DNA of 64,000 bases from a virus (Duplodnaviria; Caudoviricetes): IMG/VR virus record IMGVR_UViG_3300047539_000055. One strand, given 5' to 3'. The notes below the pieces were generated by a model, which worked only from the letters and a program-made list of their open reading frames with translations, made no database searches and was not told where the DNA came from. Position 1 is the stretch's first letter. Each line of letters opens with the position of its first letter. Shown here in pieces: positions 13,630-36,262 of this stretch. The translations under genes were made by a program, and so were the position numbers.

Positions 13630-14190
13630 TCAAATTATTTCTTTTATTGGTTGCTTATACGGTCTTCGTTTCATATATTCTATTGCATTAATACTTGCTT
13701 CTTCGGGAAATTTATCAAGTGATGCGAGCAATATATTGTGATCGTAACATATCTCTCCCCGATAATTATTTGGATTAATTTTCTGTCCATCATGATAGTG
13801 ATCTGAGTTAAGGCTATTTGATTGAATCAAGCAATTAGGAAATTGACAAATCTTTATTGATCCTATTTCTTTGAGTTGATTTATTGTAAAACTTCCTTTT
13901 AGAAAATGTCTAGTTGAAAACCCACATTCCTTACACTTAGATTTTATTCTTCTATGTTCACACATCTGAGAACCACCGCATTCTTTACAATAACTTTTTA
14001 TTCTTTTATGTTCACATATAGATTTACCGCCGCATTCCTTACAATAATTTTTTTGTCTTCCGTGTTCACATATCTGAGAACCACCACACTCTTTACAACT
14101 GGATTTTCGTCTTCCATGTTCACATATCTGAGAACCACCGCATTCTTTACATTGGGATTTTAGTCTTTCATGTTTACATTTTTTATTCAT
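13630..14190 (-). CDS. Zn-finger repeat (CEH..K..CKECGG x5) + EndoVII-like His-Me nuclease, putative homing endonuclease
   Basis: 18-aa (54-bp) repeats; C-terminal 'C....C.....L.SDHYH......RGEIC..HN'; SD GAGG before ATG 14190. Confidence 0.75.
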   Translation of the reverse strand: MNKKCKHERLKSQCKECGGSQICEHGRRKSSCKECGGSQICEHGRQKNYCKECGGKSICEHKRIKSYCKECGGSQMCEHRRIKSKCKECGFSTRHFLKGSFTINQLKEIGSIKICQFPNCLIQSNSLNSDHYHDGQKINPNNYRGEICYDHNILLASLDKFPEEASINAIEYMKRRPYKQPIKEII

Positions 14191-14212
14191 ATAATACCTC
14201 ATAAAATAATTT

Positions 14213-34512: not shown

Positions 34513-34589
34513 ACCGATATTTATACTTTCGCGGCGGATTTTATTTAAAAGCAAATATATTTAAAAAACCTCTGGTTTCTCAAACAAAA

Positions 34590-34875
34590 GAAATGCGAAG
34601 CAAAATAGTATTTCTCGAACCAAGCGAGCAGTCCGGAGCGAAGCGGAGGACAGCGCAGCGAAGGAGAGAGAAAGACTTCTTTACAAAAAGCCAGCCGCGA
34701 AGCGGGTGGCGTTGTGCGTAGCACAACCGGGCCTGTAGGAAATTTGTTTTTAAATACACTTCTATGAAATCAGAATAGATTTTTCTATTCCTCATAAGAA
34801 TCATAGCTCACTTCGTTCGCTATGATTTTTTGAAGGAATTACTCGTCCTTCGGACTCGTCCTTCCTTCAAAATAC
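34590..34875. other. Cluster of GNA-loop DNA hairpins, candidate replication origin / priming signals
   Basis: GCGAAGC at 34595, 34638 and 34697; GTTGTGC-GTA-GCACAAC at 34711-34727 on +; CGAAG-containing hairpins on the minus strand at 34799-34872. Confidence 0.45.
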
Positions 34876-34962
34876 GCTTTATTTTGGTTTATTTTTAAAG
34901 ACAGAAACGCTAAAATGCGTTGTTTTAAAAAACGGAACGGCATTTACTGCTATCCCGCATGA

Positions 34963-35268
34963 ATACATCATCGGTCAAAATCTGCTTTGGGAGGGTTGCT
35001 CTGTTCCCAAATATGAATAAATTCAACGACGATCTTTATTAGCAGCGCAATCATTTCAACGATTCAAGAGATTGAAATGACCTGTGGAATTAGAACAAAT
35101 TATGTTCTTGTTAAATCCACTCCGTTTCTGGGTTTATTTATCCAATTACTCGGAAAGGTCACCACTTGCCTTGCGTCACCAGAAACTCCTTTTTGTATGC
35201 CTCTGATGTTTCGTCGCTAACGAGTTGTTGGCCTCAACGCGAGGCATTTAATACAACTATTGATGTAT
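34963..35268 (-). ncRNA. Candidate large structured non-coding RNA (~300 nt)
   Basis: Promoter TTGACA-17-CATACT directly upstream, no ORF, ends complementary (ATACATCA/TGATGTAT), at least six internal stems. Confidence 0.55.
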
Positions 35269-35272
35269 ATTA

Positions 35273-35301
35273 AGTATGGCAGAAATGTAATAACTTGTCA
35301 A
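35273..35301 (-). promoter_or_regulatory. Sigma70 promoter TTGACA-17-CATACT (extended -10) firing into the non-coding region
   Basis: Boxes at 35296-35301 and 35273-35278. Confidence 0.7.
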
Positions 35302-35482
35302 GTAAAAAGTTAACTTATTTTGAAAATATTGTTACCAAGTTTTATTTTACGAGGCTAAATAAAGATGAGTTAGAAGCTCAGGTTGAAATAAATAGATTTT
35401 GACTATGATTGTCATCAATCACAATTATTAGTCAGCCCACACTGCTTCTAACAGATGTGGGCATTTCTATTTAAGAGGTAAA

Positions 35483-36262
35483 ATGACGCAAAAGAAATGT
35501 GAACACGGAAGGCAACATAGCAGATGTGAAGAATGTGGCGGTATTGGAATATGCGAACATAAACGACAAAAAGGTTTTTGTAAAGAATGTGGTGGTTCTA
35601 CATTTTGTGAACACGGCAGAATAAAATATACTTGTCATGAATGTTGTGGTTCTCAAATATGTGAGCACAGCAAACGAAAAAGCCAATGTAAAGAATGTGG
35701 TAATCTTTCATCTAGCCACTTTCTAAAAGGAAGTTTTACCAAAAAGCGGCGTAAAGCCCCTGCCTTCAGGTATGGGGATATAAGCCGTGCTCTTGCTGTT
35801 GTTTTGTTCTTGACAGTATACTGCTTCATCTGGTATAGTTCTTATATGGCACTTACTCGACGCCTTGGGATACATGGAGTCGTTAAACGACTGCGGACAG
35901 TGTGTAAGTCTGGAGAAATTCAGCTAAGCTGGTTGAAACAGTTAAGGCGTTCGAAAGAACGCTAGAATCCCCCGGATTTATCCGTGGGGAGTATCAAAAA
36001 AGAACAAATCAAAGAAATGGGAGCAATAAAGGTTTGTCAATTTCCAAATTGTCTTGTCCAATCAAATGGGAAATCCCTAAATTCGGATCACTATCATGAT
36101 GGAAATAAAATCAATCCAAATAATTATAGAGGAGAACTTTGTCATGAACACAATATGTTATTAGGATGGCTTGAAAAATTTCCAGAAGCAGCGATTACTA
36201 ACGCAATAGAATATATGAAAAGAAGACCATATAAATCATTACAAGTTACCGAGATTAATTAA
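35483..36262 (+). pseudogene. Zn-finger/EndoVII homing endonuclease (paralogue of 13630-14190) interrupted by a mini-IS
   Basis: Removing 35740-35997 restores ...SFTKEQIKEMGAIKVCQFPNC, collinear with the paralogue's SFTINQLKEIGSIKICQFPNC (173 aa). Confidence 0.88.
35740..35997 (+). mobile_element. Non-autonomous IS200/IS605-family (IS608-like) element, 258 bp
   Basis: Inserted 3' of TTAC without target duplication. Left end: AAAG guide + CCCCTGCCTTCAGGTATGGGG hairpin. Right end: GAAT guide + CCCCCGGATTTATCCGTGGGG hairpin, ending in TCAA. Confidence 0.92.

Follow-up and report, generated by a model that had tools for sequence, protein, structure and literature searches.

A 258-bp IS608-type deletion derivative in a jumbo-phage nuclease gene retains a promoter and a predicted omegaRNA scaffold

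In the genome of a jumbo phage, an open reading frame of CxxC repeats that starts at position 35483 meets foreign sequence at 35740, and the same frame resumes near 35998. What this sequence is, how it arose, and whether the RNA that it could produce still has a function are the questions raised by this locus. The window, i.e., the whole stretch of 64,000 nucleotides analyzed here, belongs to a phage represented by a 353,395-bp contig (JGI 3300056587), whose family B DNA polymerase is about 40% identical to those of Atu_ph07 and RaK2. Joining positions 35483-35739 to 35998-36262 gave the excision product, a 173-aa ORF colinear with an uninterrupted paralogue. Since this paralogue and an empty allele of the same phage are both available, the boundaries of the insertion were fixed exactly. 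The earlier note on this DNA had described a 258-bp IS608-like mini-element with the end logic of IS608, and all the features that it listed were found in place (Table 1).

The cleavage sites and guide tetranucleotides of IS608 are TTAC (CL), AAAG (GL), TCAA (CR) and GAAT (GR) (PMC5934647, PMC3201880), and the window has the same four, together with the bulged-T palindromes and strand-specific ends known from this element (ISHp608 of Helicobacter pylori). The subterminal palindromes are on the same strand at both ends, carry an extrahelical T and come without terminal inverted repeats. The insertion lies 3' of TTAC with no target duplication, as in IS608, and the empty site is seamless; the parent of the window copy likewise has a Y1 tnpA followed by tnpB. 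In contrast to IS608, the spacing is 17 nt on the left and 8 nt on the right, instead of 19 and 10, the window copy is devoid of both genes, and it resides in a jumbo phage found in environmental metagenomes. Both IS ends are kept, there is no intact protein gene, and the element is short (258 bp), which are the features that define a PATE. The motifs and boundaries are far beyond chance, and the 33-nt right end had no second match in the 64 kb and none in shuffled sequences.

Table 1. Position of the features discussed in the text within the 64,000-nt window.
Feature	Position	Strand	Remark
Interrupted gene: Cys-rich CxxC repeats and Endonuclease VII-like domain (PF02945), 173 aa without the element	35483-36262	+	
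TTAC target tetranucleotide, left cleavage site CL (would-be TnpB TAM)	35736-35739	+	Retained in the empty allele L167
Non-autonomous IS608-like mini-element, PATE-type, 258 bp	35740-35997	+	Missing from the paralogue and the empty alleles L167/L170
Left guide tetranucleotide GL, AAAG, directly 5' of the left hairpin foot	35753-35756	+	Same as IS608 GL
Left subterminal imperfect palindrome with bulged T	35757-35777	+	One G-T pair (G-C in relatives)
Sigma-70-type promoter TTGACA-18-(TG)TATAGT, the tnpA promoter of the parent IS	35810-35839	+	11/12 to consensus; -35 TTGACA at 35810, TG-extended -10 TATAGT at 35834
ATGGCACT, tnpA nucleotides 1-8 from the ATG at 35846, probably leaderless	35846-35853	+	114-nt prefix common with the parent IS
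Predicted omegaRNA scaffold: last 27 tnpB codons and right end	35854-35997	+	143/144 identical to the parent
Right guide tetranucleotide GR, GAAT, directly 5' of the right hairpin	35965-35968	+	Same as IS608 GR
Right subterminal imperfect palindrome with bulged T	35969-35989	+	Helix 6, two covarying pairs
TCAA right cleavage site CR, final bases of the mini-element	35994-35997	+	35 unrelated flanks start right after it
Flank, would-be omegaRNA guide AAAAGAACAAATCAAAGAAA	35998-36017	+	Assigned from the TnpB model; TTAC plus target match present in L167
Second TTAC plus 16 nt; in L166 these 16 nt adjoin the right end of the full-length IS	36195-36214	+	Would-be target for the guide of the L166 copy (36199-36214)
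Uninterrupted paralogue, 190 aa	13630-14202	-	Found by repeat search
TTAC plus 20-nt site in the paralogue	13866-13889	-	Matches the guide flank 16/20

When full and mini copies were compared, the promoter hexamers were conserved and the spacer between them had diverged. In all the full-length copies (L013, L007 and L166), as in the window (35834-35848), the ATG of tnpA is found 6 nt after the -10 hexamer; because of this short distance, the mRNA from which tnpA is translated in this IS family is probably leaderless. Besides the left end, the left part of the mini-element thus contains the promoter and nucleotides 1-8 of tnpA, a gene whose product begins MALEGY in the parent. The peptide MALTRR, earlier taken as a likely tnpB stub, turned out to be something else: the 8 nt of tnpA that encode its start run out of frame into the tnpB 3' end, and the tnpB stop codon TGA is at 35934-36. 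This tnpA/tnpB chimera is the sole ORF of the mini-element and is in frame with the host gene. TnpA and TnpB genes were absent from the 64-kb window; as its tnpA is reduced to 8 nt, while the parent has TnpA, the window copy is a non-autonomous derivative.

Sibling contigs of the same phage were found by exact-protein look-up of the neighboring 199-aa gene, and three states of the locus were observed among the metagenome contigs: empty, occupied by a full-length 1737-bp IS, and occupied by the mini-element. The empty junction TTAC/AAAAGAAC, which the earlier note had proposed to look for, was present in a public assembly (L167), with 0 differences over 522 nt from the predicted product of precise excision. 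The autonomous parent, also sought in that note, was found at the same TTAC in another contig (L166, JGI 3300037353) as a 1737-bp IS with both tnpA and tnpB. The mini-element corresponds to positions 1-114 and 1594-1737 of this IS with a single substitution, the left part being identical in 114/114 nt and the right part in 143 of 144. The one changed base is the A at 35927, which breaks a G-C pair of the helix 3 described below. The deletion junction lies between 35853 and 35854 (GGCACT/TACTCG), with no microhomology and no common k-mer at the parent breakpoints, and the deletion took tnpA from its 9th nucleotide onward and all of tnpB except its last 27 codons. By comparison of these alleles, the mini-element is an in situ, 1479-bp blunt internal deletion of a 1737-bp IS608-type IS, so that the claimed loss of tnpA and tnpB can be followed from a parent seen at the same site. 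We regard its identity and origin as an IS608-type deletion derivative as practically certain. A chimera of two IS subfamilies was also considered, the left part being 77% and the right part 99% identical to L013, and was rejected when the true parent with the same combination was found at the locus.

Two other origins of the 258-bp form were weighed against these data. An assembler could have collapsed a full-length IS into it, and shuffled flanks around multi-copy IS do occur in metagenome assemblies; however, the breakpoints joined at the junction share no k-mer in the parent, and analogous mini-elements are found at other loci and in other samples, making such an artefact highly improbable. 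The segment could also be a self-splicing intron or an IStron-like element that is removed from the RNA, with the nuclease still being made. Its length is a multiple of 3, it is in frame, it interrupts a nuclease gene of a phage, the sort of place where introns are typically found, and IStrons unite group I introns with IS605 ends (bioRxiv 10.1101/2023.11.20.567912). Nonetheless, no group I or group II match was obtained in Rfam even at E<=10, none of the boundaries that agree with the paralogue places a G at the end, the element ending in A, and the whole sequence is accounted for by the left-end and right-end segments of the IS. This origin is scarcely conceivable.

The occupied locus varied among contigs. 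In L177 and L178 the full IS was joined to the right flank of the window, and in L179 to its left flank. In L166, the right end of the IS is followed by window sequence from 36199 onward, after the second TTAC (36195-98), and 201 bp of the EndoVII domain are missing; this loss may be a genuine deletion next to the IS, or else the assembly may have merged two insertion alleles into a chimera. The same IS, with a 100% identical left end, was also observed in L177-L179 and L180-L182 with at least four other left flanks and with other right flanks, and some contigs of this group had the window flank on one side and a foreign flank on the other. The mixed flanks point to recombination between copies, movement of the IS with its flank, or chimeric assembly; several copies of an IS that exceeds the read length make real rearrangements and chimeric assemblies look alike. 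A second empty allele (L170, JGI 3300052348) showed 8 differences from the window, all of them within 36000-36031, and was identical elsewhere, over about 1050 further nt (to 37079) and 71 nt leftward, about 1120 nt in total. The changes hit positions 3, 4, 11 and 13 of the predicted target and three amino acids, and the patch is suggestive of either resistance or co-conversion.

Relatives of this IS were identified in 15 viral contigs by a degenerate right-end pattern search and, with a conserved interior 18- to 20-mer, in 12 viral contigs (some of them also in the right-end set), one Terracidiphilus MAG contig and many metagenome contigs. Several of them are full elements of about 1740 bp, in which the left end follows TTAC and a Y1 transposase of 133 aa and a TnpB of 391 aa are encoded. 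Of the left flanks, about 14 are distinct, and all the resolved ones end in TTAC; on the other side, TCAA is immediately followed by 35 unrelated right flanks. The flanks of the other copies of the family had no DNA in common with the window outside the element, and a nucleotide search of phage records gave no match to the element. The parent TnpA was closest to the ISHp608 TnpA structures (E 5.6e-49) and the parent TnpB to that of ISDra2 (E 2e-66, end to end), with the RuvC D/E/D residues and the zinc-finger cysteines conserved; Pfam assigned Y1_Tnp and OrfB_IS605 to the parent proteins. The TnpB P0001 (L013), 88% identical to that of the parent at the locus, was found on at least 24 contigs in different contexts, indicating that this subfamily was active very recently. 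A protein-less element of about 140 bp from a different subfamily, with related left- and right-end hairpins, was seen in a 14-kb viral contig (L008:7623-7765, minus strand).

Precise excision was expected by the earlier note to restore the nuclease gene, and it does give an in-frame ORF of 173 aa, identical to the natural allele L167, in line with the seamless excision of IS200/IS605 elements (PMC3201880). The same note had gone on to propose a reversible switch, in which excision and re-insertion by TnpA toggle the EndoVII-like nuclease gene. Such a switch is mechanistically possible, but it shows no sign of an evolved function: tnpA is absent from the window, seamless excision is general to the family and is no evidence of regulation, a second intact paralogue is present in the window, and nothing ties excision to a signal. 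We therefore consider the switch very unlikely. The paralogue site does contain the TTAC and the 16/20 match with proximal mismatches that had been described, the mismatches to the guide flank being at positions 3, 5, 7 and 11; with four mismatches in the first 11 positions, this site would probably be spared from guide cleavage. Looking up exact proteins gave no match for the paralogue, the C-terminal ORF of 92 aa or the GIY-YIG neighbor. A related jumbo phage (L154, 359,890 bp) has one uninterrupted homologue and no TnpB, which is uninformative for the phage of the window.

The surroundings of the insertion showed some further features. The CxxC-repeat N-terminal modules (PF05265/DUF723, precomputed hits) vary in repeat number and sequence among paralogues and contigs, in the window at 35483-35740 and 13890-14202 and in the genes upstream in L177/L178; the EndoVII-like C-terminal part beside the IS is identical between contigs, and TTAC is located at the domain boundary. 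Upstream of the interrupted gene, about 900 bp (34545-35480) contain no convincing ORF, and a GC-richer stretch at 34590-34730 has several GCGAAGC-type mini-hairpins, with no Rfam match and no relation to the IS.

Next to the ends required for transposition, the mini-element keeps the promoter and a 3' segment, as the earlier note had pointed out. This segment was identified as the tnpB 3' end and right end of the full copies, the place of an omegaRNA, and its structure is supported by covariation. In an alignment of the last 150 nt of 16 distinct copies, RNAalifold predicted six helices with 42 pairs, and 98.8% of the cells were paired on the consensus structure. Changes on both sides were found in 14 pairs, compared with 8.3 ± 1.6 in shuffled alignments (0/500 reached this value) and at most 4 in slid controls. 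The covarying pairs are in helices 1 and 3 to 6; helices 1 to 4 are inside the tnpB coding end or span it, and helix 6 is the TnpA hairpin. The stems that had been drawn from the single sequence are all present, but one of them, the local GTCGTT/AACGAC hairpin, gave way in part of the family to a longer helix (alignment columns 12-21/27-36) that is favored by covariation. The window RNA alone had a fold z of -3.4, and GAUAC near its 5' end pairs with GUAUC just before the guide, a pairing that is invariant and so lies beyond the covariation test. A covariance model built from this alignment gave one strong site in the window, which is part of the training set, and weaker matches in more distant subfamilies.

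The search of Rfam returned no omegaRNA match, either at E<=10 for the region or at the gathering threshold for the whole window, and no tRNA was found in the window. A missing family model does not speak against an omegaRNA. The earlier note had made its reading depend on a similarity of 35860-35997 to TnpB omegaRNA scaffolds, and despite the lack of an Rfam match, similarity to the TnpB-linked 3' scaffold was demonstrated directly. The TnpA synaptic complexes of IS608 form without the sequence 5' of GR (RE45, PMC3201880). The mini-element keeps 111 nt beyond GR, and the retained region is therefore longer than what TnpA needs. Taken together, positions 35854-35997 are predicted to be an omegaRNA scaffold. 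There are also signs against function: the substitution at 35927, which breaks a pair of helix 3, and the G-T pair in the left hairpin, where relatives have G-C, are compatible with relaxed constraint. In the L017-L020 lineage of mini-elements, an alignment read by eye suggested that the scaffold is no more conserved than the adjacent junk remnants.

The best argument for a functional unit came from the deletion boundaries of other derivatives, protein-less or truncated, each mapped to its nearest full copy, with right-side junctions counted from the right end. The junction is at -144 in the window mini-element, -147 in the L017-L020 lineage, -149 in L085, -152/-154 in L132, -165 in L012, -241 in L016/L014 and -94 in L148. 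The left junctions all differ, so the mini-elements represent independent events. At least four of them break within 11 nt, between -144 and -154; the search motif is located at -75 to -58, which leaves about 1500 positions open to breaks. Clustering of four lineages in this way has a probability of the order of 1e-5, a rough estimate in which the choice of the interval is allowed for. Most deletion derivatives also keep a promoter-like element upstream. This convergence suggests a functional unit that extends from about -150 to the right end, and its limit would be the boundary of the RNA; the cluster at about -150 could also reflect a deletion hot spot rather than selection. In L085 (1562-1750, minus strand; also in L142), a TTTACA-17-TATATT element was found about 8 nt upstream of the -149 boundary, with an intact right end and no left-end hairpin, and this element may be an immobilized guide-RNA gene.

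The same observations bear on whether the mini-element is an inert deletion relic, with a functionless RNA and perhaps mobilizable by TnpA, in which the promoter and the 144 nt survive only because the deletion is very recent. A single base of difference from the parent leaves little time for selection, this lone substitution disrupts a helix, the mini allele is present on one contig only, and there is no TnpB gene in the window. A relic offers no reason for the convergence of at least four independent derivatives at -144 to -154 out of about 1500 positions, for the upstream promoter-like element retained in most of them, or for a retained segment far longer than TnpA requires. We consider the relic a real possibility, if a doubtful one; in that case, the element would be an ordinary, very recent product of IS decay.

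With regard to a role of the RNA, the TnpB model offers a frame. In this established model, as given by Meers et al. 2023 (bioRxiv 10.1101/2023.03.14.532601), the TAM is the transposon target motif, and the RNA guides cleavage of the element-free site. Karvelis et al. 2021 and Altae-Tran et al. 2021 reportedly present the same model. At the locus studied here, an IS608-type IS inserted 3' of TTAC in the Cys-repeat/EndoVII-like gene, and the 1479-bp deletion followed. Transcription would begin near 35846, from the -10 element at 35834-39, and would yield an RNA made of a leader of about 8 nt, the 144-nt omegaRNA scaffold, and the flank starting with AAAAGAACAAATCAAAG as the guide. TnpA from full-length copies could excise and move the mini-element as single-stranded DNA through the TTAC/AAAG and TCAA/GAAT pairings, and TnpB acting in trans could load its RNA and cut element-free alleles, which have TTAC and the guide match; the cut alleles would then be repaired from the element-bearing genome. 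Both proteins would have to be provided by another part of the phage genome, by the host, or by sibling phages that carry the full IS and infect the same cell.

Several findings are relevant to this scheme. The mini-element makes no protein and so would depend on full-length copies, which sibling phage genomes carry at this very locus and which also occur at many further sites. The target, TTAC plus AAAAGAACAAATCAAAG, is present in the empty allele L167. Sample ERZ27247600 contained both the empty allele and a contig with the left end of the parent IS, TnpA and the start of tnpB, and sample 3300054973 contained the DNA polymerase of the phage and a contig with the complete parent IS (tnpA plus tnpB); these overlaps are co-occurrence in a community, not in a cell. 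From the sequence comparisons at hand, a functional trans-acting guide RNA has, in our estimation, slightly less than an even chance of being real. The explanation as a whole, an IS608-type deletion derivative with a trans-acting guide-RNA function, is the one that we favor by a narrow measure.

The closest described systems place the mini-element in context. Protein-less derivatives of IS200/IS605 elements, the PATEs, are known (Dyall-Smith et al. 2011, PMC3119063), one with IStron ends has been shown (bioRxiv 10.1101/2023.11.20.567912), and, according to Meers et al. 2023 (bioRxiv 10.1101/2023.03.14.532601), omegaRNAs dependent on TnpB in trans are frequently encoded by PATEs. The window copy is likewise protein-less, has both ends and the guide-RNA region, and would need TnpA and TnpB in trans. 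It differs from them in the tnpA promoter fused about 8 nt upstream of the scaffold, in the presence of parent, empty site and mini-element at one phage locus, and in the several independent mini-elements with the same scaffold boundary. With ISDra2, whose TnpB-omegaRNA (reRNA) structures have been solved (PDB 8H1J, 8BF8/8EXA), the family shares the place of the RNA, at the tnpB 3' end and right end, and its guide would likewise come from the 3' flank. The two families are expected to differ in the TAM, which for the family of the window should be TTAC. In ISDra2, the TAM is TTGAT. In the marker exclusion that the homing endonucleases Seg and Mob of T4 drive between co-infecting phages, the outcome is the one proposed here, with cleavage of the allele that lacks the element and conversion from the genome that bears it; in our case, by contrast, the nuclease would be RNA-guided and encoded on another element or genome. 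For homing of this kind, the term 'transposon non-restorative homing' is in use, and a 2026 review (PMC13565253) names homing from one co-infecting phage to another among the possible modes.

PATEs that carry guide RNAs have already been described in bacteria, and the window mini-element adds a phage case. Less common are the tnpA promoter placed almost at the edge of the scaffold and the complete allelic series at one jumbo-phage locus. The boundary at about -150 would map the minimal omegaRNA scaffold of a TnpB whose close relative (88% identity) is widespread in phage-like contigs, and a minimal scaffold is useful for the engineering of compact TnpB editors. The locus presents, in a natural series resolved at the sequence level, a site without insertion, the autonomous IS, its guide-only derivative and a target-altered empty allele, and it suits a cheap test of TnpB homing in trans and between co-infecting phage genomes, a subject so far treated mainly in reviews. 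A broader and rather unlikely reading is that mini-elements with a promoter and an omegaRNA are recurrently selected, guide-only hyperparasites that free-ride on the TnpB of others, and that the locus is a live RNA-guided gene-drive polymorphism. If this were true, these elements would have lost tnpA and tnpB exactly as far as the 5' edge of the scaffold, TnpB would come from full-length copies in co-infecting phages or in the host, and the inheritance of the mini-elements and of linked phage markers would be biased against element-free alleles. The alleles of such a drive at this locus would be the empty site, the full IS, the mini-element and the target-mutated empty allele, which may be resistant.
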